Positions 3,205 to 36,078 of a DNA stretch of 39,676 nt are shown one piece after another. Within the stretch, counting starts at the first letter, position 1; each line of letters begins with the position of its first letter. Made by a program: the position numbers and the translations under genes. A model generated the notes under the pieces. It ran no database searches. It saw only the letters and a program-made list of their open reading frames with translations, and had not been told where the DNA came from. The stretch comes from Mesotaenium endlicherianum (Eukaryota), in assembly GCA_009602735.1 (NCBI GenBank), contig WELA01002297.1, positions 471,961-511,636 on the forward strand, read 5' to 3'.

Positions 3205-3739
3205 CATCAAGACCAGAGGTAGGCTGGTGTGCTCTTGCTTGCACTGAAAACATGTAATATGTCTCCACCTGACGGACCTTCACTTAGATATCCATGATGC
3301 TTGTGAACATACTGAGGACTGAATGAAGAAATAGGATAGGTCTTCCTCCTCCATGATGTTTGTGCCTCCAATGCCTAGAGTTAGCACATGCATCCCTATT
3401 TTTATCAACACTTAAGTTTATGGAGTTTTGTTGCAGTGTTGGACAGGGCAGTTTCATCCTCAGGCACTGAAAGCGCCGGCATGTCAGTAGGCGGTCAGCC
3501 CGAGCCCTCCGAAGGTGAAGACTAGGATGACAGGGACTGGGCGGACCTCCTTGGCTAGAGTGAGGAGCAGTGCACGTGCTCGGATGGAAACTGTTGGGGG
3601 GAATGTGCACCCTAAACCTCAAGTTTGGCTGGACCGAGGAGGAGAGGTCTCTGTTGTGAATAATAGCTGTGTCATGCAAATGCATGTCAATAGCACGTGG
3701 ACTTAGAGGGCCTAATAGTTGTACATATAGGCACGTTAG

Positions 3740-4197
3740 AGTTGCATGGCTCCTCTGCGAGCTCCTTGTATAATACTTGATGCTGATTCTTAGGCATGTT
3801 GCTTTAGTTGCACTACTACTGTGCAAATTGAAGGTTTGTACATATGCTTTTGAGATGCTTGTGTAAGAGGTGTCGGCTCCTTGTTGCTACAGAGTACCAA
3901 ATTTTTTTCCTCCATTCTGTAGGGAAGTATTAGGCTCTTGAGGGTCTTATGCAATTGACAAGTAACCAATGTACTTTCATGTGTGTATGTGTGGTTGTGT
4001 GATGTTGAGTCACCAACAACAACAAGCAATATAATCTTAGAAATTATGCGTATATACTTGTGTTACTGTGCTGCACTAAATGAAGCATTTACAGTCGCTA
4101 TGTCACTACTTAATAGTTGAATAATACACCTGCTGTTGTCCACAAGAGAACTCATTAATTGATCAAAATGTATATACAAGTTGAGGTCCTGTACCCT
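3740..4197 (-). repeat. Diverged ~450-bp repeat, copy 1 (inverted relative to 10932-11410)
   Basis: Shared blocks include GGTACAGGACCTCAACTTGTA, ACACAAGC(A/T)TCTCAAAAGC(A/G)TATGTACAAA and TACAAGGAGCTC. Begins immediately after the transposase stop codon. Confidence 0.8.
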
Positions 4198-4200
4198 ATG

Positions 4201-7200
4201 CTATATGTAGTCCTCGATCTGAAGTAGCTTTGGTGCGCGGCTGTGGAATTGGTTGAGAAGAAATTTGTTGCACGAGTTGGCATTGCGTATCATTTTCAAT
4301 ATACACCCGCCCGGGGGTTCTCTGCACTCGCCTTTATCCACCAACTTCCCGTGCAACTTGCACTCTCTCCACACGGCACAGCTTGTCCTGGCAAGGGCCC
4401 ACTCTTCGTCAACATCTCGACCAATGTCCTTCTTATCATTTCTGATGACATACCCGGGTAGATCCTCCATCTCCCAGTAGTACCTTTCCACCTGCACCGT
4501 TGCAATGATTTGGGACGTCGGTATGACGACTGTATCCGCCTCTAGCGTGAAGGCCGGATGCAAAGTGAACTCGTCAATCACCAAGCGTCCTCTCCGATCG
4601 CGTACAGGCTTGAGCGGCCTCACCAGAGCCCATAAATACTCCGTGGTTGTCCCGGGGTTCTCCCGCCTGTCCATGGGATGAGGGATGAGGTGCATGACGT
4701 GCACAAAGAGTCTTTCCACTCTGGCAACCCACACCTGCCTGTTCTTTCTCTCGGCTCCTGTGGCTAAGCCGTTGGCGGCCACTGACACGTGATCCTCTAC
4801 TCTGAAGGTCTCGTTGGGCCCTCCCTTGGAAGCCTTCTGGCACATGTATATGCGCCCATTAATCCATTCTTCGACAGAGACAATCTGCCGGCTCCCGTCC
4901 TCCTGGAGGCCATCACCCAGGACCTTTTCGTCGAACCTCAAGAGCGAGCGGTACTTCCACTCCATGTCCTCCTTTGTGAGTCCTATAGTCTCCAACTCCA
5001 CGAAGGAACGGTCTCGATGTTTCTCTATCCAGCTGCACAGTTGCAATTTGAGGGAGGAACAGAATGAGAATCATTCATCACCACTTTGCATGCCTCAAGC
5101 TTTCCCACCCATGTCGATGGCATGCACAATAGACTTGCAGATTGCATGCGACGAGAATATGCAATATGAAGCAGGAAGGTATAGGAGTAATACCAATTGC
5201 CGATAGCCCCATGGCAGAGCAAGACTGAAGCCACCTGCACCCGCATGTAGACCTCCCTGGATCCGGCGGCCTTGCTATTGTGCACCAGACGTGTATTTTC
5301 TTCCCCCGCATGAGGTCCCACAGCACCGAGTCTTCTCATAAAACTACTTCCTCTCACTGTCTCCACCACATGATCGGCCATTCCCATCAGCCGAGTGACT
5401 GTGTGACCGAAATCCCTGAAGATGTCCATCGTGCACATTCTCTCCAGAGTCCTATACAGTAGCCACTTGGATCTGTCCTGGCAATTCCTGTTATTGAGAG
5501 TCGGCATGTTGTTCTTCATGTACTTGTGCTTGCTCTCAAAGGACTGGCCCCATAGGTGAGCCATAGGGCCGTACTGCTTCAAGGCAGTGCTGTAATGTAG
5601 CAGAGAATGCATGTTGTGACTCGCGTCGTTGAGCTGAGCCGTGACCCCTGCCTCGGCATCGGCCTCTTGCGCAGGGAATGCCTCTACAAAGTCTCTGTGG
5701 AAGTCCTTTGCTAACCTCTCAATCTTGTTGACGTCCCTCTGGCTAATGGAGCTGGCTAAGCAAATCTGTATGAGCTTGCACAGCTTCACCCAGAGCTTCA
5801 GTGCCTTCAGCCTGTGCTTGTACTTGTCCGTGTTGAAGTAGGTCTATTCTGTGTGAAGCGTCTACACCCTCGGATGACAGAAAGGTTGCAGCAAGGCAAG
5901 CATGAGGGGTGCGAGGGCCATAAATGTCATCCCTATGTAAGTGCCGTGATCGCACATGGGCTTCTTCACCTTGTTGTCGCCTCTGTTCACCCTCGCCGTG
6001 TCGGCCCTGTAGTTGAACGCCATTTTCTCGAAAGGCGTCCAAGCACAGTGCGTCGCACTTCCCAATGTGTTCTTTGCCAACGCCTTTGTGATACCGAGTG
6101 CAAACAGGTGAAAAGGCTCCAAAGGCATCTGGAGTATGCGATTCCATCCGGGCAGTTCCTCCAATGGACTCTTCTCCCATCCATAGCCCTTTTGACCTTT
6201 TTCCACTCCATCCAACCTCTTTGCAGACGCTGCATGAACTGCCCTCAACCTCTTCACATCCGCCTCACACTCCCTCTTTGTTCTCTCCCCAAAGTTTTCA
6301 TCCAGCAACTCCTGTCTGGACTCTTCCCACGATCTCTTTTTAAATGCTGCTTCCTCACGCGCCTCCCCAACCTCCACCTTGTAACGCCTGGACTCTTCCT
6401 CAGTACGCGGCACAACATCATTCAACGTCAAGTTCCATTCTTGGAGCCCGTTCTTGCGTACGGTACACACGGGGCACAGGAAGTCGGAAGACTGCCCCTT
6501 CATCATCATACTCTTAGTCCTCTGTGGAAAACCTTGATAGAAGAGCGTCATCACCCTCACCAGACACGCTTGCTTGAGTGGAGCAAAATACATCTGCACG
6601 CCCTCCTGTAGTTGCTTCAGGTCTTCCCTCACGAGGGACTCGAGCACCTCACCATCCCAAGAGTCCATGCTGCCGAATGCAATGAACCTAATGATGCTGG
6701 TATCCCCGATGACACTGCTATCCAAATTTTGCAAGCGGTAGTAGTACCCCGTGACACTCTGACCCTTTTTTCTGAAGATCTTGAAAGCATCCACTAATAG
6801 CAATATGGCCAGGTTCACTACGGGCAGGTTCTTGGGATTGTGTGCCTCTCAATTGGCGTCTGGGGTACCCAGCTGGAAGTTCACAGCTGGTGCCGTTACC
6901 CTCCTGAAAACTCCCTCGTCCTTTTGTTTGAGAGCATCTACACACCAGTAGGTCTCCTTGCCTTCCACTACCCAACCGTGTTCCGACCGCTCCCAGCCTA
7001 ACTCCCCCCAGTTCCCCCCCAATGGTGGTGCACCATGAACAACTTCTCAGGTGCGCAGAATGAGGCTAGGGTCCACTTTCATGGGCTCCTTAGTGAGCAA
7101 GAGCTCCCCGTGCCCTTCACCCTTCTGCATCACGTGAGCACTTATGACGCGCTGTCTATCTGGTTGGCTACTGTCAGTCGACAAGATCTCGTGCACCAAG

Positions 7201-8311
7201 ACCATCACCTCTCGGCCGGCGGCACCTGCGCATGCAGAAAGGCCCTCGTCATTAATGACAAATGAAAGAATAATTGAGGAGAAGGAACTCCCAGGCACAC
7301 AGCAAGCTGAACTCCCAGACTCCCATGGCTAATATGCGATGTGGCAAGCAGGGGTTGCAGTGATATACCCGCTACTTGTGGGCTCATAACTAGGAGTTAC
7401 CCCAAGGCCACCTTCATTTCCTCCCCCCCTGTGTGCATTCGACAGCTGTACTCCCGAAAGAGCGGATGGCCAGTTACATATGGGAAATTGTAGAGCCCCG
7501 TCATCTCTCCGTCCACTAACACCTCAGGCTTGAAGTGGATCTCCCTGCTCAATAAATTGTCCCCCACCATCTCCGCCAGACTTTCGCTGACACGCTTGGA
7601 CCACAGCTTCTCCCCGCTTGGCAGCAGGGTTTCTTGCACACCATGCTTGTGAAATTTGGCTTTCGTCTTGTGTATGTCGTCAATCAAGCACCTTTCTTTG
7701 TCCTCTGCTCTGTAGAACTGGCTATTCAATCTCCACGCCTCTGTCAATCGTTTGGTTTTCTTAGTACTTACATTGTGCAGGATCTCGTAGCCACACTTGC
7801 ACAAGCACGTCGCGCTTTTGAACTTCCCCCGCTCTTCCTCCGTGGCCTCTAATATGATTTCGTCACCACAATTCAAAGCTAAATTTCCTGCTGCGTGTGC
7901 TGCAGCCTTGGCAGCCCTCTCCGATGCCCGCATAGCTGCGTGCTGTTCCCGTACCTCTGCGTGTAGTGCTAAATTAGCTAGTCTTTTGGCTGCCTCTTGT
8001 ACTCTTAAAGCATCCTTGCGCGCTGCTTCTGAGGCTTCTATTTGCACTTGCCTGAGATCTTCCTCTTCCTGCCTTAATTGTTGGCGTGCCTCATTTACCG
8101 CTAGCTGACTAAGGTGTGCTATCTCATCACTGTTTTCAACATGTCTTGCCCGCTCTTGTTCTCTGCGCAATGCTTCTTCATCTGCTGATTCAGCTCTACA
8201 GGCATGATGACAAACCACTCTATACCTCATCCATTCTCCACATTGAGTGCATTGTAATTTCTTATTTTGATGTGGTGCTTCACCACTGCCCAATATCCTT
8301 GGCATCTCCAC
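4201..8311 (-). pseudogene. CMC (CACTA/Mirage/Chapaev)/Plavaka-like DDE transposase, probably spliced, with premature stops
   Basis: Motifs occur in the expected order: LLVDAFKIF..SVTGYYYRLQNL (first D), YQGFPQR..CPVC (second-D position reads G; CxxC), LEPFHLFALG, HNMHSLLHY..YGPMAHLWGQSFESKHKYMK (E), then a beta-rich C-terminal domain ending FLLNQFH. ORFs 7047-7298, 5862-6818 and 5025-5789 form one frame broken by stops at 7047, 6849, 5862 and 5844. The N-terminus has a CxxC..H..C finger and a coiled coil. Probable introns lie near 7226-7400 and 5033-5240; splice phases are not resolved. Confidence 0.85.
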
Positions 8312-9003
8312 AACAACTCTAGTCCTCCTAGTTAAGTGTACCCCTTATGCATTCACCCAAAAACTACGGTTTTACTCGTGAAGAAGACGCCTCAACTGAT
8401 ATCTCCTTGGTGAAGGCAAGAGTATTATTGTCTTCACCTGATACAAGGCAATTTATTATTTGCCTTTGGATAGGTGCCGTATTTTTTCATGTTATTGATC
8501 GATTGCCTGGAAGTTCCGAGCCGACCAATTTATAGTACGTTGCAAATTTTTGGCAATGACGTGACCGTTTTAATTCCGTTGAAAAAAGGATCGGAGACAA
8601 GGAATTTGTCACGGCACGTGACCAACTTTCTGGTCCGTTTCTCTCCAGCGATTTCATTTGACGGACACAACATCCGACCACGACAATCGCAACACTCACA
8701 ATTGCACACACCACGAATGTGCATTCACTGACACGTATCGTCGTGTTTTGGGAGGAGTGTAACAAATGTGAAGGGCACACAAATTATTCCGTTGTGACGA
8801 GTCGCAGACGTCATGACATTTATGCGAGCAAAATGTGAGTTATCATACATTGTCCTCCGCGCGAGTGTCGCTCACGTTTGGGAGTCGGGATATGGCGAGC
8901 TCATGTGAAGTAATTTTTATTAGCAAATGCCACTTTTGGACAATAAAAAAAGGTACAGGAAGTTAGCTCTCTGCATGCTCTACATGCTGCTTAATCTTGC
9001 TTC

Positions 9004-9571
9004 ATGCAGGAAGGGTGGTCGACGAGGCAAAGAATGGCGTCCATTGCCATCTCAGCGGTGGACAACAAGAGCAACGACAACAAGTCCAACGCTAATAGCA
9101 GTAGTAAGAATGAGAAGGTTATTTCTCCCTCTGTTCTCTTTAAAAAGTCTCAATTGCCCAAAATTATGGCTCATCATTCAGAGTTGTACCTCCTGCAATC
9201 TCGTGATGAGAGTCTGAGCCTTGAGCAGAGACACAAAGCCTTGGATTGGCATGCCTTATACAAAGGGCTTGAGGAAACTTAGGAATGCTTCAAACGACAG
9301 GCTCTTGAGGAGCAACGAGCCGAGTCGAGATTTAAACAAGGGAGGCAGGCAGTAGAGAACTTGAGGCATTGGTTGGCGGAAGGCAACACTATGGTGGTAG
9401 AGTTTCACAAGCACAAGGGCCCGAGTTTGTGGATGTGGAGCGAGAAGGTGAAGGAGGGGGCCTGCTTGGCCATGCAAGATACATGATCAGTGCAACTTAA
9501 GTGCATGTGTGAAATGCCCTGTGTTGCTCAGTTCTTTTGGTCCGCTTGTTAGTTTAACAGTGGCCCAACTC

Positions 9572-9632
<61 letters not shown>

Positions 9633-10870
9633 TGCTATTTGTATGTTTGCAATTATTGAAGCAGAAGAGGAGGCCGGCATCCCCGTCGACTGAAGCACCG
9701 ATGTGCAAGGGACCGGCAGGGAACCCAAATCTGTCCCCGGCCACAACCGCCAAGAAGAAAGCCAAAACTCCATGAGAGGTATACACAGCCTCCTGACACC
9801 TTGAGAGCATGTGCATGCTAAACTGTCAACTGACTCTGCTTGTTGGCCACACGGTCTTAGAAAGGGCTCAACTTCCATGTTATGAGTGCAGGCATTCCAC
9901 GTGAAGCGGAGGTTACCATTTCAGTCCCAATGTGGGGGAAGAACAAGGACGGCTATGAACAGGAGTGGGGAGATTGCAACAACAAGAAGTCTCCACAGAA
10001 CAGAGACTCCGGCCTCAACAAAAAAAACTTGTAGACTCTGCACATGGTGAGTAGGTGCATGGTGAGTAGGTGCAAAATTAATAGTGTCTCACTTCATTTG
10101 TACTCCATCTGCATGCTCATGCACATTGTAGCAATCTCAGGCCCTCCTGCATTGGCTGATAGATCACAAGCAACGAATGAGCAGGCCCTCTCAGCGCAAG
10201 CGACACTCTGATGCTGCGACCTGTGACTGCAGAGAAGATTACTCCAAAGGGAGGCTCTTGCGGAACGTATTCGACCAGTTTAAAAAGTAGGACGCCAAAA
10301 TTCAAAGCGCCGCCACGTAGGAGGCCTCCAGCTAAGAAGTCAGCCCAGACAAACAAGAAAATGAAGCAGGCTGCAACTTCAGGCGAGGGTTCCGCTGCTC
10401 CAACAACTAAGAAGAACCAGCAACGAAAGGAACACCGCGTGTCCTCCGTGGAAGAAGAGGACACGGCAACACAGCGGGGTGAGGCAGAGACGACAAGCTC
10501 AGGTGGGCAAAAGATGGATTGGACTCCCTGTTGCACGCAAGTTCGCTGATGCACGCATATCTCAAGAGTCCAGCATCAATGGTGCACCTCTCGTGAACAT
10601 CTGCACAAGGGTAGGTCTACACATGATTGTCACTTGAAGAAATCGGAGCGCTTGTTAGGGATGATAGCATGCCAATATTGGGGCCACTAGAAGATACATT
10701 GTCACCCGTTTCATTTAAACTGAGCAGACTCTGCTTACAAACCGAAGCCCCGGGAGCTGCGTGCTGTGGAGCTGCTTGCTGTGGACTGAACAAGGCAGGA
10801 GCAAGAGGAGTGCCAAAGGCCTGTGTACAATAAGAGGTGCTAAAAGAGGTGATCTGGCATCGTTTAGAGA
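9004..10870 (+). pseudogene. Unknown multi-exon gene (charged helical N-terminus, K/R-rich low-complexity middle)
   Basis: ORF 9004-9282 continues in frame past TAG (ECFKRQALEEQRAESRFKQGRQAVENLRHWL...). Further coding-like pieces lie at ~9665-9775 and 10211-10549, separated by intron-like segments, one containing the (CT)n tract. No domain recognised. Confidence 0.45.
9569..9629 (+). repeat. (CT)n microsatellite, ~30 units
   Basis: Directly visible, with one interruption. Confidence 0.98.
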
Positions 10871-10931
10871 GCTAATGCAACAGTATGGCGGAAATATTTG
10901 TTGTAAGAAGATTTGGGGTACCAGAGTATAT

Positions 10932-11410
10932 GGTACAGGACCTCAACTTGTACATTTTTATATAAAATAAAGCAACAAAACTCTTGTCCACAGGTACTGT
11001 TGTTAGTAACATATACTGATTCCATGATGCACACCGCAAATTTGCTAGGAGCAGAGACTCCAATTGTTGCAGTGCAGGACACTAACACAAATACACATGC
11101 ATACTTTCTGATATTACATTATTGTACATTGTTGGTCACTCAACTTCACACAATCACGCATGTGCATTGGAGGAGGCATGAAAGTGATTTGGTTTTCAAC
11201 TGTTACTTTGACTGCATACATCCCCAAGAGTAAGGAGGATAAAATGATGCTACTCTGTAACAACAAGGCGCCTACACCCCTAACACAAGCTTCTCAAAAG
11301 CGTATGTACAAATATTTGACTCAGACGCTAGTGCTGCAACTAATGTAACCTACCCGTGAAACAATATGAACTACTGTACAAGGAGCTCAAAAAGGGGCTT
11401 TGCAACAGTA
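10932..11410 (+). repeat. Diverged ~450-bp repeat, copy 2 (inverted relative to 3740-4197)
   Basis: Same shared blocks as copy 1. The incidental translations PTPLTQASQKRMYK and PTPLTQASQKHMYK reveal the match. Confidence 0.8.
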
Positions 11411-11643
11411 AGAGCCACATGTGTACAACTATTGGGACCTTGTAAAAGGTCCTCACCTTGCATAGCTTCCATTGCTCTCTGCTTCTAGGTTGAAGCATCA
11501 TCATCCTCCGACTTTGCCCACCACAACTGCACATCCACAATAGCATTTAGTATGTTAGATGGAGGCGCAACAGTGCCAAAACTACCTGCCATTACATGTT
11601 GGGTACAATTAACACAAGAATTGTCCACCTCAAATCCTTCACA

Positions 11644-12424
11644 TCAAGAACTGCCTACCTCCACTCCTCCCATGTAGCAAACGGAGCACATGTTGAAACT
11701 TAAACCGCTTCCTTCCACAGCAACATCCTCACCCTCAGCTTCTTCTTGCACGCGTTTGAGTGCCCATGTATCACCCAGACACTTTCTGTGGGACTGAATT
11801 GCTTCTAATCTCAAGTCGCAATTCACCCAAATTGTATGAGGCTGTTTCTGACATCTGTACTAACTCCTTCATCCATTGGGCAATATCATCTGTGACTCTA
11901 TCAAACTTTCTCTTCCTATTTGGCCCCATCTCCTCAACTGGATCGTCATCAACTGGCTGGAGAGCTGCCACTACATCCAAAGTTGGCACTACATCTCCCC
12001 GTAATGCCTCAAGTTCTAATATTGGAGCTTTGCCTTTGTCTGATGTTGATGCCATGTCCTCCCCTAGAGCTAGCTAACGAGGCCTGCTTCTCAGACAGAA
12101 GGCTTGATCATAGAAGGCTGCAGCCTTTCTTTTGACATAAGATAAATGCTGATTGATGGTGATGTTTATATCTAATTCCGCCGTTGCATCACTCTGGATT
12201 ACCTCCAGACGAGTGATGTTATATGCAAGACTACTTTTCAAGGCTCCAATCCTTTTGATTTCCAATTTGGTTTCCTCTATAAATTCCTGCAGTTCATCAC
12301 ATAAATTGCTATGGCGCTGTTTCTTAGTTGGACTCACCGGTCCCTTTTCAGCACTACTTGTACCTCGTAACCCTTCACCCCCTTTGCTTTTGGACATTGG
12401 CATGTACTGGCTGTTGTCGCTCAC
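11644..12424 (-). pseudogene. Unknown coiled-coil protein gene
   Basis: ORFs 12074-12424 and 11771-12055 share a frame, separated by one TAG. Contains a heptad-like segment ELQEFIEETKLEIKRIGALKSSL and NLS-like PNRKRK. ORF 12587-12919 may be an upstream exon. Confidence 0.5.
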
Positions 12425-13715
12425 TCACAAGACAATGCAGTGTATGAACGATAAAAGCTAGCACAGCTCAAAGAGAAAGAGGGCCTGACTTTGTGACCAG
12501 CCTGAAATCTCAATTTTTGATATCGAATGTATCACGAGCACCACAAGGAACAAAAAAACTCTCCTAACATGCACACAACAGTCTATCTACGCACTGGCCG
12601 AGGGTCCCATCTGTGGATACATTTGTCTTCCATGTAGGAATGTACACCTGAGCCACTTACATGCAGCCATGGCTCTGCATGTGCATTTAAGAACAGGGCT
12701 CGATAGAGGTATTGAAGGACAAGGTTGGATGTTTCCGACTCGCAGGCGCAAGCGCTCGGGTTTGACGATTGAACGTAATTCGACGTCAGTGATTATGTCC
12801 AAGAACCAAGATTCGTTCAACCACGTCCAACCTCTGTGCACAGACCAACCAAGCGTGAGCAAAATATGAACTTTGTGTTGAACGTACTTCAAGTGACCAA
12901 AATATCTAGTCACGCACACGCTTTACTTCGCTGAAGCAAATGACAACAAGATACCGTGAATGGCATATATATAACCGCCAACTGGTGGAACATTTTGCGG
13001 GCCACAGCAAGATGTCCTTCAGAGGTATTCACACAATTATATTTCTAAATAGTATACCACTTGAAAATGAGATAACCTTCTGTAATAATTTGGTTACGAA
13101 ACATGGCCTTCCCGGAGTTTCGATCCTTCGTCTGCTCGTTCGGGAAATGTGCATGAGGTTGACAAAAACATTATGTTTGTTTCAGGAGCAATGCAATAGT
13201 ATGACGGAAATTTTACGTAAATGAAGTCTAAAAGGGTGGAATGGCTTCGGGGTTGCGACCCGACCATTATCACGCTCAACAGGGTCGCATGTGTGGGCAC
13301 ATCAGCTTTTCCACTACATCATACTGGGACATTCTGCCAGTGACGACATTCAAAGTTCATTACTAATGACGTCCTATCATCCACCGAGTACCACTGAAGT
13401 CGAAGCTAGCCCACCGTCGATGCCAACATCACCGCCCAAAGATGCCAAACTCAGTAGTGTAATGCACCTTCGCAGGCCACCTTCCCTCCATGAGCCAAAT
13501 TTGCAAATTTGACGCTAATTTTTTAGAATGACTTCCTTCCAATCTCACTTCATTTTGTATCCATAGAGTGCAACATGATGGGCCCTTTTAATGTCAAATC
13601 CGTTTCTCTCCCCATTTTAAAAGTGCACCACCGCTTTCAGTCACCGAGCTACTACAGACACGCCCACATTGTGTCATAATATATAGCACTAACACCAGAC
13701 AGGGAAATCTTTGCT

Positions 13716-14482
13716 ATGGTGGATGAGCACATGTCAGAGGACTCTACTTTCGCAGAATGTTTCTGTTCCATATGTTTAGGTGAGAACGCGCTTGTGTTTT
13801 TCTTGTTGTGCGAGATATTCAGTGCGATGAGCACGAGGTCAGCAATTTAGATTTTAATACTCTGCACAATTTTAAAAGAGGTCCTGGATTGCATCCTCAT
13901 TTTTGTTTGGCAGATGTTATGAACCCACCCGTGGAGGTACAAGATTGCGGCCACAGGTTATGCAAAAGGTGTATTGAGACAGCACTTGAAAAAGGGTAAG
14001 TCTTGGTCTTAATAGTTATTTTCCCTCAATGACTGGTGCTGCAATTTATTAATGGCACTCTAATGTGTAGCTGAATATTATGTGCAGCCCACTGTCATCT
14101 GCAGGATTCTCCACACTTGTGAGCCACATAATGTTCTAACAGCGGCATGTTGCCGTTTTTGCTCGTGCACCGATTTCCTTGCAGTAAGGGCAAGTGTCCC
14201 CTTTGTAGGAAGCCTGCCACCCGACGGGGATGCCGACGGTTGGATGCTCGTTTGTGTGCACTGATGCACAAACTTCGTTCCACTACCAACGGTTGTACAC
14301 TTGTCAACACTTTAAAATCGTTAGAAACAAGTGACTGCGTGGGTGGCGACTATGCCAACGAAGACACATAGTGTGTTACTTTAACGTTGTCCGAATTGAT
14401 GGGACGCCTGCAGACTAGAACAGCGCGGCTGTGCTGCACTGCTGCTATGCTTCTTTCACACACAAATTGCTGGCCAAGTAGA

Positions 14483-14544
<62 letters not shown>

Positions 14545-15507
14545 TGCAAACTGTCAACCATTTGGAGTTCTTTTCACAAATTGAGCAAGATACTGCACTA
14601 CAGCTCATTACACCATTTTCTTACATGTGACAGTCTCCAATGGCAAGCCGCCTCTCGACGAGGTTGTCTACTATCCGATGAGCAGTAGCTTCATCTGCGT
14701 TCCTGCTGTCTTCTTTGGAAAAGCGTGGGCACAGAAAGAGGTGGGCATACATCATGCTGACGTCTTCTTTAATGGCCAGTGCATAGAGGTACAAAAAGGC
14801 ATATTTGCAACTTTCTTCTGTGATGACGACGAATCGTTTTGGGTCTCAGAAAAGAACGTCAAAGATGATCACATTAAGGAGGATGAGGCTGTGTACAGCA
14901 GGGGTAGCACCGCAGCTCTTTCCGAAAAGTGTAGAACCTTTGTGGTCAACAACCCCAGCCTGTCGTCGGAAGCAAACATTGTAAAGACCAGGAAGGCAAA
15001 ATTGCCTCCCTACTTGACTCTGTTCTGGGGGTTGTTTAGGGTTAGTCCCATTTCGCGCGATTGTCAGTCTGATTCTTCATTCCAGCCGGCTCAATTTGGT
15101 AGTGCTACTAGTTGTCATAGTTCAGGGTAGATATGGAGGGGAAGGTCCTTGGAATACAACGATGGCTGTAACCATAGTCCCTTGTACTGTATCGCCCACT
15201 CGTGTACAGATGTCAGTGTGTTAGATAGGTATTCAAGATCATGTCTCTTCCCCTTGGGATCAAGCAGATTTACAAAAGTTAATGATAACCCGCAGCAGAA
15301 GCCTGTTGTTTTTTAGTGGCCTCGTGGAAGTTGTATCACAAGAGCCTAGCACGTATGAAATCACAGCTGCTTGTTCAATTGAATTCCAGCACACCAACAA
15401 GCGTTGAGTATGAGGTCGAGGTCCAGTACTTTCTGACAGGGTACTCTACCTCTGAGTTTTGTGCAGTGAATTCAGCGCATGATCAAGTCTGGCAGCATTT
15501 CAAATAA
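13716..15507 (+). pseudogene. Spliced RING1-like C3HC4 RING E3 ligase gene fused to unknown domain X
   Basis: Exons 13716-13779, 13914-13995, 14185-14477 and 14634-~15228 have phase-compatible GT-AG introns. They give CSICLDVMNPPVEVQDCGHRLCKRCIETALEKGKGKCPLCRKPATRRGCRRLDARLCALMHKL. Premature TAGs at 14369 and 15128. The third intron (donor GTAGAG) and the last exon (~15317-15507) are less certain. Confidence 0.8.
14480..14541 (+). repeat. (GA)n microsatellite, ~30 units, inside a predicted intron
   Basis: Directly visible. Confidence 0.98.
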
Positions 15508-15684
15508 TCGTCACTCAAATGGTCACTAGTAGAAGCAAATCACCCACTAAGAAACGTCACAACATACTCACTGCAAACTACAAAGTGCTATTTTAACTTC
15601 CTCCCCACACACTAGATGCCGTCATCAAAGGAGTCCTATCAAGCACCTGTTCTTATAGATCTTGGGATACTTGTTGCCCCTCTG

Positions 15685-17951
15685 CTAGTGAAGGCCGTCA
15701 ATCCCCACCAGCGTGCTCACATGCTTTCCGTTACACTTGTGCTGATGCTCGCCGTGTGCACTTTTCCCAGAAAGCCACGTGTTGAAGGCTGATGCCAACG
15801 TGTCACAAGTAGGATGACCTGAGTCTTTCTTTACTCTAATCTCCTCCTCCACAAAGTGGCCGAAAGGCAGTGCGCACCTCAGGACACCACAGCTGCCTCT
15901 CACGGGCTTTAGCAGGTTCAGCGAGGCCCACTGTTTGTTTGTGAGGCCACCCTTGACTCGTGGCGAAGCGCAGGGCTCACTGCGTGTGGACAGCGCATCA
16001 ATGGCCGCCTAGCAGAGGGACGCACGACATGTCGCCAGCAACGCGTGTCTCAGGGGCTGTGCCAGGCTTCCAATGCTTGCCCACTCCTTGTCACACCGCG
16101 GCCGATTGAACCACCGCACGAGTTTGCTCTTAGCGCACCTTTGTTCCTCAATCGACCTGTGCACGAGAGAATTGGGTATGGGAGCGACGGGAGGTGCATC
16201 TACCAGCGCCGACACGTGGACCGCCTGATGTTTCCTAAAATCACCACTCTGCATCTGCCAGGCAACCTTCGACCAGGCGGCTACCTCGTGCAACGGCGGG
16301 TCCTTGCTAAAATCGTACTTGTCTTCGTAGGCATGAGATATTCTACTCTTGATCCATGCCGAAAGGCCTTCCAAAATGGCATTATCTAAGTGGTAAAGCT
16401 GACGCTTTGCGTGGGCCATACAATTTGTCCAGCCAATTGGGAATCCTTGTAGGGTCTCTACGTCCTCCACGCCTAGCCCCCGGAGGTGAGAGGTGCGGCC
16501 CACCTTCTCTACCACGACAAGGAGGTTGGAATTCACGCACGTAACTGTGGGACAGAGGCCGTATGCCTTGTTGGGCAATGCCTCATTCAATCCCGATACC
16601 CACACGCCCTCGTACTCTGTCTTCTCCACCAGGCTGTGATAGGCACAGATGCATATTTCTGTCTGATTGCAAAACGCGCGAGGAGTGAATAGCAGGTTGC
16701 GCGAATCTCCCCAGCGCTTTGCAAGAATGACGACCTGCTCCCTAGCTTGGGGCTGTCCAAAGGACAGGCATTGCACGATTCTGTAAGCCCAATGGTAACC
16801 CAAGGCGTTCAGATTGTGAGCGACATGGGATATATAGGGAGTCCCACTTTGTGTTTTTCTCGTGAGCAGCCCCGGGACATTCTCCAAAAACGACGATAGG
16901 CACTCTCTGTTATTCTAAGAGGCGCCACAGGTGTACAATGAGACTAATTCGCTTCAACGACGCAACCTTCCTGCCTGTGTTACCTCTTGTCAACACATCT
17001 TGGCAGGGAAAGCCCGCCAGGACAAGGTCGATGCCTGGGGAAAGACTGCCCAAGCTCACTACATCCGAATGGACTTGAACACCAGGAAAGTGCTCCTTGA
17101 GGAGGGCCTGACAGCGGGGATTACTTTCAACAAAGACACATATTTTGTGCCCTTGGACGTGGAATGGCAACTCAAAATCACCTATACCAGCAAACAGACT
17201 GCACACTTTCAGGGGTACTCTTCTTTGCCGTCTCTCTTCAGGTGAGACCATTTGCCCATCAGAGTGGGGCAGTACACGTATGGCAGACAAGATTATACCA
17301 AGAGCCCAAGCTTAGCTTAGTGCAATGGACTATTGTGCCAATATTTGGTGGGGAGTCATAAACACCACTAGCAATAAAATGGGGATGTAGGATGCTGGGC
17401 AGTTTGCAGCGCCTAATAACCTCTATACTAGCATCACTGTGCAGCCTAGGGTTCTTGAAGACAAAAGCATCTACGTAGTTGTGTAAATCATATGTGCACT
17501 CAAATGTAGCACGCGTTGTAATTGTGGGTACGTGATATCGTGACACACTATCTTTGTCCACCCAATAATAGTCGCCTTCATTTCGATGGCCATGGCGGTG
17601 GAATATGGCTCCAAAGATATGCAGCTTCATCCTAAGCAAAAGCCTTCATAGAAGATAGTGTCAGCCTGCCCGCCATGCTATTGGGTCGCCCACTCCTCTC
17701 CAAAAAAGGGGGCGGGAATGTGAATGTAGGATGCTGCCATCTCGAATGGGGGGGCCTGAAGGGAGTGCAAGACAAACATAACATGAGTAGCTTCAAGGCA
17801 GGTGTCATACGTCCAAGTTGAAGATCCGCTACTTAATCAAACGAATACGTGCCATGTTTGCACCAAGTGCCATGCAAGAACTTTGGCTATTGTCGTCATA
17901 CCATGTATCGTCGCAAAGGCTGTGCCTCACGTGAGCATAGATCATCTTCAT
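15685..17951 (-). pseudogene. C5 DNA cytosine methyltransferase with N-terminal domain X (disrupted)
   Basis: Motif I SLFAGIG, II VE, III SDV, IV AGFPCQD, VI LENVPGLL, VIII QPQAREQV, IX LQGFPIGWT, X LDNAI. The WAYRIV..FG.PQ and GD.R..L segments resemble compact bacterial-like/algal Dcm-type enzymes rather than MET1, CMT or DRM. Lesions: TAA at 16910, an extra T at ~16886-16890, frameshifts near 17630 and 17250, and TAGs at 17829, 17678 and 16009. A phase-0 55-nt intron lies at 17756-17810. The frame continues past 16009 to 15685. Confidence 0.9.
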
Positions 17952-19977: not shown

Positions 19978-22079
19978 AGCTGGCGCTGCAAATAAAGACT
20001 CGCTCGATCGAATAAATCCCTTCTCTAGTAACTATGTCAACAGCTTCTTCAACTCATCCAACTTCGCAAACGATTGTCAATAAGCGGGTCTTACTGGTGC
20101 CTTGCTCCCTGGTTACAACTCACTTTTGTGCTTCACGGCTCTTTGTGGAGGAAATCCTGCAGGTAGGTCCTCAGGAAACACGCATTTCAATTCCTCCAAC
20201 AGCACCTTAATTTGGGCAGGCATCTCAGCAGGCTTCTTCTTCTCTTGAGCAATTGAGCTCTGTTCCTTCTGAGCAAGGGGATCAGACACCACTACTTGCT
20301 CCTCTGGTGACGCGCGCTCTCCCAAAATTTTAGAATTCACGCTTGCTCCATCTGATGACCGAGCCAGGGTCCGCGAAACAAGGTCCATCTCCTTCTCTTG
20401 ATTTGCCTTGCATAGTTTCTTAATTTGTAGGCTCGACAAAAGACAATTACTTGTGGTCGTATCTACCTCCACCTGTTTTGCTATCTCCATTCGACCATCA
20501 CGCCCTTGGACTTTCACTTGTCCTGTGCTCCAATGCACTCAAGGGTTGGTTTTCCTTAGCCATGGCGGCCCGACATCACCTCATGGTGACCTAGCTCTGC
20601 CTGCTTCATAACTTCATCAAATTGGTGCCCCGCTACTTCCATGTGAATAGCTTTCGTAGGTGCACCACACTTGAGTCTCTGTTCATTTGCCAAAATTGCC
20701 TCCTTAGGCTCATTATGCCTCTGCACAAAGATTCGCCACTCTTTCCCCAGCTTCTTGTGCACAAAGTTTGCATTTGCGCCACTGTCAACCATACACTTCG
20801 CCTTGTTGCCGTCTACTACTCCTTACACGATAATAGGCTTGTCAACATCTCGTCTTTCGCTTCTTAGCAAGCTCTTGGGTGTAACCTTCTTGTGAGTTCC
20901 TTTCTTCACGCCAGTAGACACCCCAGAACGACGTACTGGCGTCCTCCTTTTTCCTGCTGTTGAGGTTGCTTCGCCTTCACACGACAGTCTCGAGCAAGAT
21001 GCCCAAGCTGGCCACAATTATTGCAGGGTCCTCTCGGCTTGTAAATTTGCTGCCTGCGCTGGTTATGGACAAGTCCCAACTCCATAGGTACTGTACCTTG
21101 TCCAGTGGTGCCTGGTGCTTGAGAACCAAACAATCAATGTCCTCCAAAGTTGTGGTCGCCCCAATGCCTCTGATTATACTCCACAGCGTCAACTCTTGTT
21201 TCCAATGCCATCATTTCTCCAAGACTGGTAGGGTCTTTGAGCGCCACTTCCTTGGCCACAGTTGGCTTGAGTCCCCTCTTGAACTTGTCCATCATGTCCG
21301 ACTTGTGCATGGATGGACGTTAAAGCACCAGCTCGTTGAAGCGCGATACATACTTCTGAACGCTTCCTCATTGACAAAGGCCCACCAATAGATCTTAAGC
21401 GGTAGCCTCAAGTGCAATAGGTTAAAATTGCTTCTTCAAACCTTCAAAAAACTAATCATTAATTGCAGGAACTCCAGCAGCTGCTCTTCTCGTTCATACC
21501 AAGCTCCGGCACTATCCTGGAGTAAAGTTATGACAAAGGCGACTTGCCTGTTGGGCGTGAGCGCAGAATACTCCATAAACTTCTTCATTCCAAAAATCCA
21601 TTGAGGAACAGGTGGCAATCCACGCTTTGCAGTATACACTTCAGGCTTAGGCGCACGCACTCTTGATGCAGGTGCAATAACTGGTTGCACCACTGGATTA
21701 ACATGAATTGGTGGTACAACAGGTGCAGGTGCCGAACTCGTCGAAGCGGCGTTCCCAACAACAACTTGCACCATTCTCTCCACCTCCGCGCACATATTTT
21801 GTTGAAATAGGGTGTAGGCTTCTCCTCCAATTTCATTTGTCATTTGTCTTAGCATCGCCTGCATCTCTTGTTGCTCTCTCGTCATCGTTGGCGCTGCCTG
21901 CTGCTCCACGCGCTTAACATGCTCGACATGTTCGCCTCCTCCAGTTGCCGACTGCAACTCCATAATATAATATGCAAACTACCCCAGCTCCAATACCAGA
22001 TGAAAGGGGCGGAGTGCCCCAGTGGAAGCGTAGTGAGTCACGAGGAAAAGAATTAGTTACAATCATATTAAAAAGTGCA
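19978..22079 (-). mobile_element. Ty3/gypsy family A, copy 1: 3' end of 5' LTR, PBS, gag, protease, start of RT (truncated)
   Basis: LTR end at 22001-22079. PBS TGGTATTGGAGC at 21987-21998. gag starts at 21963, with zinc knuckle CNNCGQLGHLARDC. Protease MVDSGANANF. RT N-terminus LLEKGFIRSSESLFAAP ends near 19980. Confidence 0.9.
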
Positions 22080-22813
22080 TGTAAGGTCATAGCTTTATAA
22101 AGTGCATTTTTTGAGTTTCGTGAAAGAATATTTTGATTCTATAGTAGTGTAGAGTGCATTTTTATGGTTATTGTGATATAAAGTGGAGCGAATTTGGTCA
22201 GGTGTTCAAAGAGTTATGAATTTCCAAAGTTTATTTAGTCTTGAGGTCGGTTGACGACTGTCCTTAATTCACAATGAGCGCAACGGTCGGATTGATCGAC
22301 AGCGTTGAGTGGTCAGGGCCGTTAGAGTGAATTTGAACCTTCACGTAACTTTGGCTGACGTGGCGTGCTGACTAGGTCAAGTTACCAAGAAGTTTCAGAT
22401 TAGCCTAGCGCGTCTAAGTTAGTATATTCTAGATTTCGATGCATGCATGTGGACGTCAAATCGGCCCGACACGTCAAATGAGACGGATCTGGTCTACTCT
22501 GGAATATTTTGGGAGGGACAATTTGCCGTTACTAAGCGGCCATCCTGCCTTGAAAGGAGGACTTAGGTCAAAAAACTATAAATAGGCGTAACTTCTTTGT
22601 TTCTAATCAATTTTCACTTCTATAAATCTCTACGAGTTTGTGATGACAAGACCTTTCATTCTAGTTCATTTGTGAGCAGTTTCCTGCTACACAGAATGTG
22701 AAGTAATTTTCCTAAGCTTTGTTAGTGATGTGCTGCTGCACTCTTTAGTATGATTGCAATTGGTTCTTTTCCTCGTGAGTCACTAAGCTTCCATTAGGGC
22801 ACTGCTCCTTTCA
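22080..22813 (+). repeat. 5' LTR of family A (734 bp)
   Basis: TGTAAGGTCA...CCTTTCA. The start is repeated at 25571. TATAAATA lies at ~22578-22585. Confidence 0.9.
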
Positions 22814-22815
22814 TC

Positions 22816-22827
22816 AGGTATCGGAGC
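22816..22827 (+). promoter_or_regulatory. Primer-binding site (initiator tRNA-Met type)
   Basis: AGGTATCGGAGC, 2 nt after the LTR end. The canonical plant form is TGGTATCAGAGC. Confidence 0.8.
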
Positions 22828-22850
22828 TGGGCTAGTTTGCATATTATATT

Positions 22851-24105
22851 GTGGACTTGCAGCCGGCAGCTGGAGGAGGTGAACATCTTGAGCATGTCAA
22901 GCGTGTGGAGCAGCAGACAATGCCAACAATGACTAGGGAGCAACAAGAGATGCAGGCGATGCTAAGGCAAATGGCGAATGCAATTGGAGGAGAAGTCTAC
23001 GCCCAGTTTCTACAAAATATGCGCGCGAAGGTGGAGAGAATGGTGCGAGTTGTTGTTGGGAACGCTGCTTTGACGAGCTCGGCACCTGCACCTGTTGTAC
23101 CACCAATTCATGTTAATCCAGTGGTGCAACCAATTATTGCACCTGCATCAGGAGTGCATGCGCCTAAGCCTGAAGTGTATACTGGAGAGCGTGGATCGTC
23201 GCTTGTTTATCAATGGATTTTTGGAGTGAAAAAATTGTTGGAGTATTCCCCGTTCACGCCCGACAGGCAAGTCGCCTTTGTGCTTATCTTGCTGAAGAAG
23301 AGTGCTGGAGCTTAGTATGAGCAACAAAAGCAGCTGTCTAGAGTTCCTGCTACAGTTGATCAGCTTATTGAAGGTTTGAAGAGGCAATTTCAACCCATTG
23401 CACCCGAGGCTACCGCTCAATATCTCTCGGCGCGTCTTCGTCAACAAGGAAGCGTTCAGGGGTATGTATCGCGCTTCAACGAGCTGATGCTTTAATGTCC
23501 ATTTCATGCACGAGTTGCAGATGATGGACATGTTCAAGAGGGGACTCAAGCCAACTGTAGCCAAGGAAGTGGAGCTCAAGGACCCAACCATGCTTAAGGA
23601 GATGATGGCATTGGCAACGAGAGTTGACGCTGTGAAGTATAGTCAGAGACAGTGGGGCAGCCAGAACTTTGGAGGATATCGACACTTTGGATCTCAAGCG
23701 CCAAGCACGAGTGGTCAAGGTCCAGTACCTATGGAGTTGGAACTAGTTCAGACCCAGCGCAGATAACAATATTTGAAGCCGAGAGGGCCCTGCTATAATT
23801 GTGGCAAGCTTGGGCATCTGGCTCGAGACTGTCATGGGAAGGCGAAGCAACCTCAAAAACATTTGGAAAAAGGAGGACGCCAATAAGTTGTTCTAAGGTG
23901 CCTACTGGCGTGAAGACGACAACTCACAAGGAGGTCATCCCCAAGAGCCTACCGAGAAGCGAAAGACAAGACGTTGACAAGCCTATTATCGTGGAAGGAA
24001 TAGTCGACGGCAACAAGGCGAAGTGTATAGTCGACAGTGGCGCAAGTGCAAACTTTGTGCACAAGAAGGTGGTGAAAGAGTGGCGAATCCCTGTGCAAAA
24101 GTATT
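22851..24105 (+). pseudogene. gag: Gag with CCHC knuckle and truncated aspartic protease
   Basis: PKPEVYTGE, FKRGLKPTV, CYNCGKLGHLARDC (23791-23832) and IVDSGASANF, with several stops and frameshifts. Confidence 0.9.
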
Positions 24106-25583
24106 ATGAAGCTTGAGAGAGGTTATGAGGAAGACCCAGAGTTTGCTTATGGTGGAGCAGCTGAGTCCAACTCGAGTATGCAGAAGAAGGACGGCATATG
24201 GTATTATGGTGATTCCAAGAGAGTGGTGGTACCTGACATCAAGGAGCTACGCGACCTACTACTTACGGAGCATCATGATTGCATATATGCTGGACACTTG
24301 GAAGCGAGAAGACGGCAAGCGTGCTGAAGCGGGAGTACTATTGGAGAAATATGGACAAGGACATCAAGGAGTGGATCAGGAGTTGCGATGCGTGCCAGCA
24401 AAATAAGATACCCAATCAAAAGGAGGGAGGTACATTGCAGCCCCTTCCTATTCTTGAGTATCCTTGGGAGCAGATTGCTATGGACTTTATCAAATCGTTA
24501 CCAGTTAGTGGGCAAGGGCACAATACAGTATGGGTTGTGTCTGATAGACTCAACAAGGTGGCACACTTCATTCCCATGAAGGAGACTTGTACGGCAGCAG
24601 ATGTGGCACGGCTATTCTTTGATTATATTTTCAGGCTACATGGGTTGCCGAAGGTGATTGTTTCAGATCGGGATCCAAGATTTACTAGCAACTTTTGGCA
24701 GTCATTGTTTACTTTGATGGGGACCAAGCACAGTATGAGCAGTTCTTATCAGCCTCAAACAGACGGGCAGAGTGAGAGGCTCAAGAGTCAATAGAAGTTT
24801 GCAAGAGGTGCTCAGGAGTTTTACTATGGAAGACCCTTTAGAGTGGGACAAGAAACTGCCAGGTTTAGAGTTTACCTACAATAACAGCATGCAAGGAGCT
24901 ACCAAGCAGTCAACATTCACTATGGTTTTTGAGAGAGAAGTATATCATCCAAGGAACATCTTGTTGGAGGAGGCCAAGGAGACTCAAGTTCCTACTACAC
25001 AACCTTTTGTGAAGCAGATGGCCAAGACTTGGGACACAACAAAGACGTGTATTTGGAAGGCACAAGAAGAGCAGGTCAAGCATGCTAATAAGCACAGGAG
25101 GGAAGTGACATTCCATGTGGGCGACAACTTACTCTTGTTAACAGAGAATCTACCTTTCACGGGCAAGAGGAAATTGCGGGCACGATTTGGTCCATCTTCG
25201 GTTCTCAAGCAGGTGAATCGAGTGGCCTACAAATTGGAACTTCATTCACGTTGGGGCATACATGATGTGTGCATGTCAGTTCCTTGCGGCCATACGTTGA
25301 CCCAAATGAAGGACATCCAGGACGACTACCTACACCGCCACCACCGGTTGAGATTGATGATGTATTGGAGTATGAAGTGGAGGCGATTGTCGGCGATTCA
25401 CAAGTCAAGCGAGGTCAACGACTTGTTCAAGAGTATATGGTCAATTGGAAAGGCTACCATGCGAACGACAACGCTTGGGAGCCGGAGGCCAACTTGACTC
25501 ATTGTAAGAGTAAGTTGAGACGTCATTTGCAGAATGCGTCGAGGACGTCGCATCTTGAGGAGGGGGATGATGTAAGGTCATAG
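24106..25583 (+). pseudogene. pol: Integrase (HHCC, DDE, GPF-type motif) plus chromodomain
   Basis: HHD..AGH..CDAC, IAMDFI, IVSDRDPRF, DGQSER, RFGP, and chromodomain EYEVEAIV..YMVNWKGY..NAWEPEANL. Frameshifted. Confidence 0.93.
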
Positions 25584-28024: not shown

Positions 28025-28740
28025 TGTAAAGCATCAATATATTGAGTAGATATAATATTCATTTAAGTATTGCAGTTGAGTAAGTTCACTCTGCTGAACT
28101 TCAGTTAGCATTAAGTCTGTTGCATGTTTAATAGTTGGTTTAATGACTCAGCCAGGAGCAGCCAGCTGAAGTCAACTTAAGTCAGCTTCTTGACACATTC
28201 TTTGACAGTCATCTGACTGCCGTACTCGGTAGCAACAACCCGCCTAGTTATGCATCCAAGTGTGGTGTGCTAGATGAATGGCCAAATGACACTCTTAAGG
28301 TAGATGGCGATTCGAGATGATGAAAGATGGCTCTGGATTTGGTTAGCCGAGGTCCTACCGACGAGGTTAACTCTCGGATAGGCGGTGCCATGGCACTTCC
28401 CGTTGAACACTAAACTCATTCCATGTCCATATGCTAGGTATTGTCCTCAAGTTTGCCATTTGAAAGCAAGACCAACTCTCTTGTACCGCTTAGTGAGAGA
28501 AATCTAAATCCAAGGCGAGAAGCCATTGATGCAAATTGTCTTCTAAACTTGCTTATGTATGAGTTTATCATGGCATGATTGATGCCCGCTTACTTGCATT
28601 TGACTCACGAGTATTGTTCACTTCTAGTGTATTGTCTTTTGCTGGTAAATCAGTTAACAAAACATACCATAAAGCTTATTTGCTGATATAAAGATCTTCT
28701 ATTAATTGTTAGTCGCCGATTGGTAAGTCGATTCTCTTCA
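28025..28740 (+). repeat. 3' LTR of family B (716 bp)
   Basis: TG...CA ends. Reverse-complement homolog of 1644-2361 and 35361-36078. Confidence 0.92.
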
Positions 28741-35360: not shown

Positions 35361-36078
35361 TGAAATGAATCGACTTACCAGTAGGCGATTAACAATTAAT
35401 AAAGATCTTTATATCAACAAGTGTTCTTTATGGTAATTTCTATTAGCTAGTTTAACAGCAAAAAGAAAATACACTAGCAGCGAACAATGCTCTCAAGTTA
35501 AATGTAAGTAAACGAGCATCAATCATGCAATCAGTAAACTTATACATAAGCAAGGTTAGAAGACAGTTCGTGGCAATGGCTTATTGCCTTGGATTCAGAT
35601 GTCTCCCAGTAAGCTATACAAGAGAGTTGGCCTCGTTTTTGAATGCCGAACTCAAGAGCAATACCTTGCATATGTACACGGAATGAGTTTACTGTTCAAC
35701 GGCAAGTGCGATGGCACCGCCTACCTGGGAGTTAACCACGTTGGTAGAACCTCGGCTGACCATATCCATCGCCATCTCCCACCATCCCAAATCGCCATAC
35801 ATCCTAAGGATGTCATCTGGCCATTCATCTAGCATATCCCAATCATGTGCATGACTAGGCAATTTGCTGCTACCGAATACGAAAGTCAGTTGGCTGTCAA
35901 AAGATGTGTCAGCGAGCTGACCTAATTTGACTTTAGCCTGCTTCTCTCGGCTGAGTCATTATACTGATTTTTATTTAAAGTCTAGCAGACTGAAATTAAC
36001 TACAGTCCAGCAAGCTGAACATAATTAAGTATTATATATACATGAATATTGCATTTACCAATATATGGATTCATTACA
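35361..36078 (-). repeat. 3' LTR of family B (718 bp)
   Basis: Same length and termini as the solo LTR at 1644-2361. Confidence 0.93.

Follow-up and report, generated by a model that had tools for sequence, protein, structure and literature searches.

The window analysed here is a stretch of 39,676 nucleotides of DNA from Mesotaenium endlicherianum (contig WELA01002297.1), in which a RING finger gene on the plus strand and a C5 cytosine methyltransferase pseudogene on the minus strand face each other. Each gene is modelled together with one copy of the same domain, here named X. The initial annotation had placed a RING ahead of the first copy and a C5 methyltransferase behind the second, and both families scored above their cut-offs (PF00097 and PF00145, see below). 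Copy 1 (X1; positions 14678–15016, plus strand) comprises 113 uninterrupted amino acids, and copy 2 (X2; 17388–17740, minus strand) contains a TAG at 17680 and a frameshift near 17635; the translations originally quoted for both are present in the sequence at these positions. Aligned end to end, with the letter X placed at the two breaks, the copies are identical in 36 of 113 residues (32%). Their proposed homology withstood a shuffle test, since the local alignment score was 145 and none of 5000 shuffles reached it (mean 25.7, sd 4.5, maximum 56); the two halves taken separately scored 77 and 73, each above all 5000 shuffles. The window has no third copy, because the best six-frame tile outside X1 and X2 scored just 51. 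Identity between the copies is highest at codon position 2 in each of the three aligned blocks (0.57, 0.58 and 0.52; slightly in block one), and the likeness is therefore old and lies at the protein level. Their DNA is about 50% identical, far more diverged than the non-coding repeat pairs of the window (70–75%), yet the protein motifs were kept, which points to long selection on both. As judged from these alignments, X1 and X2 are one old duplicated domain. Both open with an aligned Met just downstream of a splice acceptor.

The RING gene is modelled with four exons on the plus strand. Exon 1 (13716–13779) holds the ATG and the first Cys pair of the RING and ends in a donor scoring 7/9; exon 2 (13914–13995) contributes the C-x-H and C-x2-C elements of a C3HC4 RING and carries the PF00097 match (23.7 bits, cut-off 21); exon 3 (14185–14330) encodes the last Cys pair and the following helix; the last exon (14634–15130) ends with the stop at 15128–15130 and has an alternative donor at 15041. 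Three GT-AG introns thus give a stop-free ORF of 262 amino acids, which contains RING and X alone, with a complete C3HC4 pattern of eight zinc ligands in RING spacing at residues 17–56. These introns have donor scores of 7, 8 and 7 of 9, which 12 of 335 nearby GT sites attain. A donor at 14478 had been suggested for intron 3; it scores 5/9 and leaves an in-frame TAG, and it was replaced by the donor at 14331 (7/9, no stop). An (AG)31 microsatellite (14480–14541) lies within this predicted intron (14331–14633). RING-X is likely to be one spliced protein according to this exon model. If the splice at 14331 is not used, the frame stops at a TAG at 14369, and the locus could encode a RING-only protein of 110 amino acids and a separate X-only ORF; the ATG at 13716 stands in a strong context (G at -3 and +4), that at 14678 in a weak one. 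RING-X would probably have originated by the arrival of a duplicated X exon, together with the splice acceptor ahead of it, downstream of RING exons.

The RING, initially designated RING1-like, is of the C3HC4 type, and its sequence could not be distinguished from those of other C3HC4 RINGs: exon 2 gave weak matches to many RINGs in the PDB (RNF4, E 3e-4; RING2-BMI1 chimera, E 8e-4; TRIM31, 0.016) and exon 3 matched BRCA1 with E 1. No RAWUL was matched in 14132–14476 or in X, which occupies the place of RAWUL in the RING-X model, and no SRA, PHD or UBL family was detected in either gene. A RAWUL-like segment common to the regions upstream of both X copies was considered and rejected (p 0.27).

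On the opposite strand, the methyltransferase pseudogene (16012–17200) matches PF00145 with 43.8 and 38.6 bits (cut-off 22). Motif I (17194), motif IV with the catalytic Pro-Cys (near 17008) and motif VI (ENV, 16884) follow in canonical order, with motif IX at 16458. A frameshift is located near 16913; motifs VIII and IX are without the Arg present in four aligned relatives, and motif X near 16386 has Asp in place of Gly. Between X2 and the enzyme lies a linker (17200–17387, minus strand), where the two frames overlap at 17311–17262, so that a single frameshift would join them. The repair suggested initially, one stop and one frameshift, is correct for X2, but joining the methyltransferase needs this further frameshift. 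With five breaks in total, the X-DNMT gene is, by its sequence, a pseudogene. An upstream exon had also been proposed (17811–17951, minus strand); it contains an in-frame TAG, has a donor of 5/9 and is without homology support, resembling the RING-gene segment no more than by chance (p 0.27), and it is not retained as coding, although it may be a 5' leader. The likelier start is the ATG at 17740, which has a strong context (G at -3 and +4), and X-DNMT was very probably once a single protein beginning there. A possible C-terminal extension of the frame (15625–16011, minus strand) lies beyond a TAG at 16011, contains a second TAG at 15687 and belongs to no family. A PWWP at 15289–15612 and a RAG1-like helix in the methyltransferase tail were impressions by eye and gave no match. 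Reading of TAR as Gln was rejected, since ten coding stretches contained 109 CAA/CAG and 12 TAA/TAG codons, eight of the latter being ORF ends, and frameshifts occur as well.

The methyltransferase groups with a bacterial, Vsr-linked Dcm subfamily, with which it aligns over the full length (26–32% identity), and with P0068 (27%), a PWWP-bearing, ChloroDNMT-like protein. Two quick trees of 44 and 20 rows were calculated from chosen proteins. A broad clade of the catalytic domain includes P0068 (SH-aLRT 99), with which an ENVPGLL stretch is held in common; its branch is long, and the test left standing both a clade with P0068 and one with the bacterial rows (p-AU 0.57 for either; diagnostic columns 11 versus 14). 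Of the 120 matches listed, P0068 alone is likely to be a eukaryotic relative, and its PWWP reader suggests that it is a ChloroDNMT. In the X-DNMT gene no PWWP was found by Pfam, nor did any six-frame match to the tail of P0068 exceed shuffles, although a strongly diverged PWWP may be present or X may itself be one; in P0068 the PWWP stands behind the enzyme, whereas X stands in front of it, both enzymes being alike in their fusion to an extra module. Pfam gave no BAH or RFTS (replication-foci) domain before the catalytic domain, where only X and a linker of 55 amino acids precede motif I, and on these sequence features the enzyme is not DNMT1/MET1-like. A search with the methyltransferase piece of the window alone yielded 0 of 3605 candidates, and viral scans with the methyltransferase and with the transposase described below were empty. 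ChloroDNMTs are reported from chlorophytes and charophytes, with a PWWP that is frequent but not obligatory (PMC12344493). This report, the predicted spliceosomal introns of the RING gene and the non-rejection of the P0068 clade would agree with a ChloroDNMT-like and a RING gene that belong to the host and lie by chance amid transposon debris; such a reading is highly improbable in view of the five breaks, the relatives at several levels of divergence, the lack of a detected PWWP and an X domain without homologue among 1.84 billion representatives.

The search for X in those 1.84 billion representatives returned four matches, all repeat-inflated and unrelated; a word search of longer proteins (56 candidates) gave no homologue, and no match was obtained in Pfam, NCBIfam, PDB sequences, the Atlas or viral contigs. 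In a search with a local X profile none of P0005–P0128 was among the 20 best domain rows. AF2 models of X were of low confidence (pLDDT 36 and 45) and their fold evidence was not significant; the low-confidence model of X1 residues 1–68 has four short strands and a short helical turn. With the better model, which is too uncertain to be informative on the fold, Foldseek returned no E under 0.001 and VIA no match (best Z 2.2). By hhalign, the F-x-x-F...W-V segment of X was aligned with its counterparts in a chromodomain and in the P0068 PWWP, with probabilities of 1.5% and 0.1%, and comparisons with the P0068 PWWP and Tudor-like parts were at shuffle level (p 0.11–0.91). The likeliest candidate for X, at slightly less than an even chance, is a small beta-barrel reader of histones or DNA, of the Tudor, PWWP or chromo type and with a conserved C-terminal segment. 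X could instead be a dimerisation module, by which RING-X would bind X-DNMT and ubiquitinate or recruit it in a direct two-protein complex. The presence of the same domain in neighbouring enzymes would suit a homotypic interaction, and RING2, BRCA1 and RNF4, relatives of the RING, work as dimers; since family searches detected no likeness of X to a known oligomerisation family and the copies are just 32% identical, this proposal is improbable.

About 5 kb from the gene pair lies a decayed transposase of the CACTA/Plavaka type (CMCT; 4204–8344, minus strand), with a first Asp near 6790, CxxC at 6476, HxxxH at 5618 and Glu near 5534. The C(2)C and H(3-4)H motifs are thus present and the usual second Asp is absent; five in-frame stops in 7418–5028 and frameshifts mark the decay. 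Atlas scores were 0.94 for Transposase_21 clusters, 0.93 for Plavaka and 0.91 for RAG1, and there was no Pfam match. Its C-terminal part looked BAH-like by eye. The transposase is surrounded by two inverted repeat pairs, A (535–939) with A' (12633–13006; about 75% over the best 257 nt) and B (3707–4202) with its partner at 10925–11440 (about 70%), the latter pair flanking it directly. A and B lack codon periodicity and are not coding, and a comparison with Rfam families gave no match. No convincing pair of TIR and TSD enclosing the two genes (CA..TG or TGT..ACA, 2–5 bp TSD) was detected in 1–20700, the best rows being within A and B. A' ends 710 nt before the start of the RING gene; should it be the end of the element, the gene pair would lie outside. 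Membership of the pair in a mobile element is fairly probable.

These blocks bear on the possibility that X binds DNA sequence-specifically, namely the non-coding blocks A and B of the element, and brings both enzymes there, as VANC does for VANDAL. Such a function would be consistent with the basic character of the conserved C-terminal segment (R-x-x-K-L-P) and with two duplicated non-coding block pairs around the transposase, and accessory proteins that bind their own element have been described or proposed for both VANDAL and Plavaka (10.1101/2025.02.11.637652). It is unlikely, however, as family searches revealed no DNA-binding family match for X, each arm has A and B as one diverged copy rather than as short tandem arrays, and the surroundings of the methyltransferase gene yielded no block resembling A or B (best z 4.3). 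The absence of any functional module is also quite unlikely; in that case transposon capture or local inverted duplication would have shuffled the X exon on two occasions, and RING, X and methyltransferase would be separate captures lying next to each other. Other old inverted duplicates in the window, the modelled nature of both fusions, the own ATG of each X copy and the possible position of the pair outside the repeat-bounded transposase unit would speak for this; against it stand the long selection on both X copies and the intact ORF of the RING-X model.

RNA records were surveyed in 6–24% of seven raw runs and in one contig set (166 records). Most reads were less than 95% alike to the window and matched X1, X2, the X2-methyltransferase linker and the transposase; one record was 95–99% alike and none reached at least 99%, and no read joint spanned any of the modelled introns. 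Diverged relatives of the X copies, the linker and the transposase exist in RNA runs of the species, and one read of such a relative lies wholly within the linker bin 17241–17407. Per run, X1, X2 and the transposase are covered by one or a few fragments, which may stem from DNA and establish no linkage between the genes. In X2, three reads change five codons, two of them silently and one to Val as in X1.

The reading preferred here, with a rough probability of 0.42, is that a large CACTA/Plavaka-type DNA transposon probably carried the facing genes as accessory genes, and that X would have aimed the predicted RING ligase and the now broken methyltransferase at the same chromatin. At sites bound by X, which would probably be the element's own copies, an intact copy would add DNA methylation through X-DNMT and ubiquitin through RING-X, so that silencing of the element could be tuned. 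The two-component writing module suggested initially draws partial support from the old domain behind a RING and before a C5 methyltransferase, the convergent genes, their relatives in the species and the adjoining transposase. A wider claim, that a transposon family encodes a two-enzyme writer of RING ligase and bacterial-type C5 methyltransferase wired by a new reader domain, and thus an independent invention of the coupling of ubiquitin and DNA methylation, must be called rather doubtful. The analogy drawn to UHRF1/VIM and DNMT1/MET1, a RING E3 ligase and a C5 methyltransferase possibly at the same chromatin, extends to the enzyme classes, but not to SRA, PHD, RFTS or BAH domains, and the methyltransferase is of another lineage. 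UHRF1/VIM and DNMT1/MET1 are not known to have a domain in common.

Transposons carrying chromatin enzymes are already known. Giant red-algal Plavaka elements (EnSpm/CACTA, 17–19 kb) contain a DDE transposase and the accessory genes PAG1–3, with cassettes of 6mA methylase and SET or of ParB-like protein and 2OG oxygenase, and most copies are decayed and weakly expressed (10.1101/2025.02.11.637652). A DDE transposase near genes modifying DNA or chromatin, and decay, are common to both, whereas the cargo presumed here combines a RING protein and a C5 methyltransferase that have a domain in common, and no ends of an element were detected around the two genes in 1–20700. Fungal DNA transposons carrying TET/JBP include EnSpm, ESTA and Plavaka and resemble the present locus in the CMCT-clade transposase, its C(2)C and H(3-4)H motifs and an adjoining gene for a DNA-modifying enzyme; theirs is an eraser and a single accessory enzyme, in contrast to a writer and a RING linked by a duplicated domain (PMC12730594). 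C5 methyltransferases also occur with eukaryotic retrotransposons (SymbioLINE-Dnmt, SymbioDIRS-Dnmt3 and KnitGypsy-Dnmt3, one of them in a charophyte), but there the carriers are retroelements, their enzymes being intronless Dnmt3 or orphan DNMTs, for which the accessible text describes no RING partner or common domain (PMC5890265). In the literature surveyed, mostly titles and beginnings of abstracts, no RING ligase and C5 methyltransferase joined by a common domain on a transposon were found. If the module holds at other loci, it would add a new domain for targeting and offer a compact system in which to test how a mobile element could write DNA methylation as well as ubiquitin marks. X1 is uninterrupted, and should therefore be directly expressible and its structure solvable.

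Domain X, 113 residues in length, is present in the window as copy 1 (14678-15016, +) in RING-X, a predicted gene (13716-15130, +), and as copy 2 (17740-17388, -) in front of the facing C5-methyltransferase pseudogene X-DNMT; both translations were found as quoted in the initial annotation. When an X was written in for each of the two breaks in copy 2, the copies were alignable over the whole length (36 of 113 residues identical), with a score of 145, compared to a mean of 25.7 and a maximum of 56 in 5000 shuffles, and each half of the alignment was significant by itself. Thus, the claim that the RING and methyltransferase genes share one domain was borne out. DNA identity was about 50%, peaking at codon position 2; the duplication is therefore old, and both copies were long maintained as protein. 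No third copy was present in the window, and all searches for homologues or a family of the domain were empty or spurious.

Structure prediction with AF2, based on an alignment of 2-3 rows, was of low confidence (pLDDT 36 and 45), and fold searches with the better of the two models were uninformative. A barrel of the Tudor/PWWP/chromo type is hinted at, as a lead only, by four strands and then a short helical turn predicted in this low-confidence model, by conserved aromatic residues, and by hhalign, which placed the same segment on a chromodomain and a PWWP with probabilities of only 1.5% and 0.1%, respectively. As to the role of the domain, a chromatin reader is ranked first, followed by a domain that binds DNA of the element itself and, in third place, by a dimerisation surface.

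For RING-X, splice joins between donors in 14301-14480 and acceptors in 14546-14680 were tested; four of eight in-frame joins were free of stops. The best one combined donor 14331 (7 of 9 consensus positions; a score of 7 was reached by 12 of 335 GT sites nearby) with acceptor 14634, whereas the donor 14478 proposed earlier scored 5/9 and required read-through of a TAG. The resulting model (exons 13716-13779, 13914-13995, 14185-14330 and 14634-15130, +) yields 262 amino acids without a stop, and hence the gene may be intact; without splicing, the RING frame terminates at 14369. RING and X are thereby modelled as one protein, with a complete C3HC4 RING at residues 17-56 and X at 113-225. Since single-exon PDB searches gave weak and mixed matches (RNF4, RING2, TRIM31, BRCA1) and a RAWUL domain was not found, "RING1-like" is only a possible designation.

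X-DNMT contains five breaks, if the tail belongs to the gene: TAG 17680, frameshifts near 17635, between 17311 and 17262 and near 16913, and TAG 16011 (all -). Among the methyltransferase motifs, I, IV and VI have stayed intact, and damage is seen in VIII, IX and X. ATG 17740 has a strong start context and lies where homology begins; an upstream exon suggested previously (17951-17811) contains a stop and found no support. A pattern scan of metagenomes gave 54 matches, including four relatives, all bacterial-type Dcm genes, which aligned with the whole C-terminal piece of 301 amino acids (25-30%). Among the best 120 of 838 matches in a profile search, PWWP occurred once, in protein P0068; Vsr (PF03852) was present in 40 of the first 61 (counted by eye). 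In the tree the enzyme fell into one clade with Vsr-linked bacterial Dcm relatives and P0068 (SH-aLRT 99), on a long branch for which more than one exact placement is possible; it is not DNMT1/MET1. P0068 likely belongs to ChloroDNMT, described as a green-algal lineage often bearing PWWP (PMC12344493). P0068 (1014 aa) contains a C5 methyltransferase and PWWP, plus a Cys-rich segment and a Tudor-like domain by eye; compared directly with X, its modules scored at shuffle level. In one DNA record (L003), a nucleotidyltransferase-like ORF (953-2071, -) and a two-transmembrane ORF (42-974, -) adjoin a bacterial methyltransferase and a Vsr-like gene; by eye, we take them to resemble a CBASS-type defence pair.

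The two-gene module proposed initially is supported in part: the old shared domain and the neighbouring RING and methyltransferase genes stand, and a RING1-like ligase is a possibility. The reading judged most likely makes the genes accessories of a large CMCT element in which X would be a common targeting module: at sites bound by X, X-DNMT would add methyl groups to cytosines and RING-X would attach ubiquitin to a chromatin protein. Mobile elements with chromatin-modifier cargo are a known general kind, since modifier cassettes in giant Plavaka elements (10.1101/2025.02.11.637652), En/Spm elements of 16-20 kb with 4-5 ORFs (PMC6431247), fungal transposons bearing TET (PMC12730594), retroelements bearing DNMT (PMC5890265), algal adenine methylases fused to PWWP (PMC4738411) and reader domains captured by transposons (10.1101/2021.11.30.470311) have been published. 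A RING and DNMT pair with a common domain was not found in the literature searched, although supplements of these papers may list such cargo; domain X is the unexplained part of an otherwise known kind.

A decayed transposase (8344-4204, -) gave matches to clusters of Transposase_21, Plavaka and RAG1 and has the C(2)C and H(3-4)H motifs given for the CMCT clade (PMC12730594). Its C-terminal part (4204-5070, -) looked BAH-like by eye, with no Pfam or PDB match. Two diverged, non-coding inverted pairs are nested around the transposase, A (535-939 with 13006-12633) and B (3707-4202 with 11440-10925). They may mark the ends of the element, or they may be regulatory blocks that were duplicated within a larger one; no target-site duplication decides between these. 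If A, the outer pair, marks the end of the element, the RING/DNMT pair sits 710 nt beyond it, and this is where the cargo reading is weakest. RING, X and DNMT may possibly have come together by chance juxtaposition. A lies between divergent and B between convergent ORFs, a layout that duplication of promoter and terminator blocks would give. Broken ORFs without family around the transposase (999-1643, +; 8995-10830, +; 11774-12424, -; 99-323, -) are candidates for additional accessory genes.

From seven raw RNA runs (6-24% of each read) and one contig set, 166 records were placed on the window, none at ≥99% and one at 95-99% likeness, and none with a joint at modelled introns. Diverged reads covered domain copy 1 (about 280 bases, run X6), domain copy 2 (runs X2, X4, X6), its linker to the methyltransferase (149 bases, run X4) and the transposase (runs X3, X5, X6); three reads over domain copy 2 changed five codons, two of them silently. 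The family therefore has several copies, and, to the depth covered, the one in this window looks silent. A 35-nt match in the methyltransferase (16397-16431) recurred in seven of eight data sets with constant, unlike flanks and therefore probably stems from another locus, an expressed but broken DNMT relative; a 472-nt contig in X10 represents this transcript, in whose flanks, read by eye, the motif IX-X region runs on, shifted by one base.

The window is repeat-rich eukaryotic DNA (G+C about 48%), with CG and CCG depleted and CWG mostly not. Debris of Ty3-type LTR retroelements (reverse transcriptase, integrase and chromodomain matches) fills its right half. Such traits tentatively suggest a host of the green lineage. 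A solo LTR-like element (1644-2361, TG..CA), with what by eye is a 5-bp target-site duplication, has relatives at 28025-28746 and 35358-36078, the three copies being 79-83% identical. A Ty3 gag-protease region occurs twice in 20710-24109, as inverted copies (85%) which face outwards with a short spacer between them.
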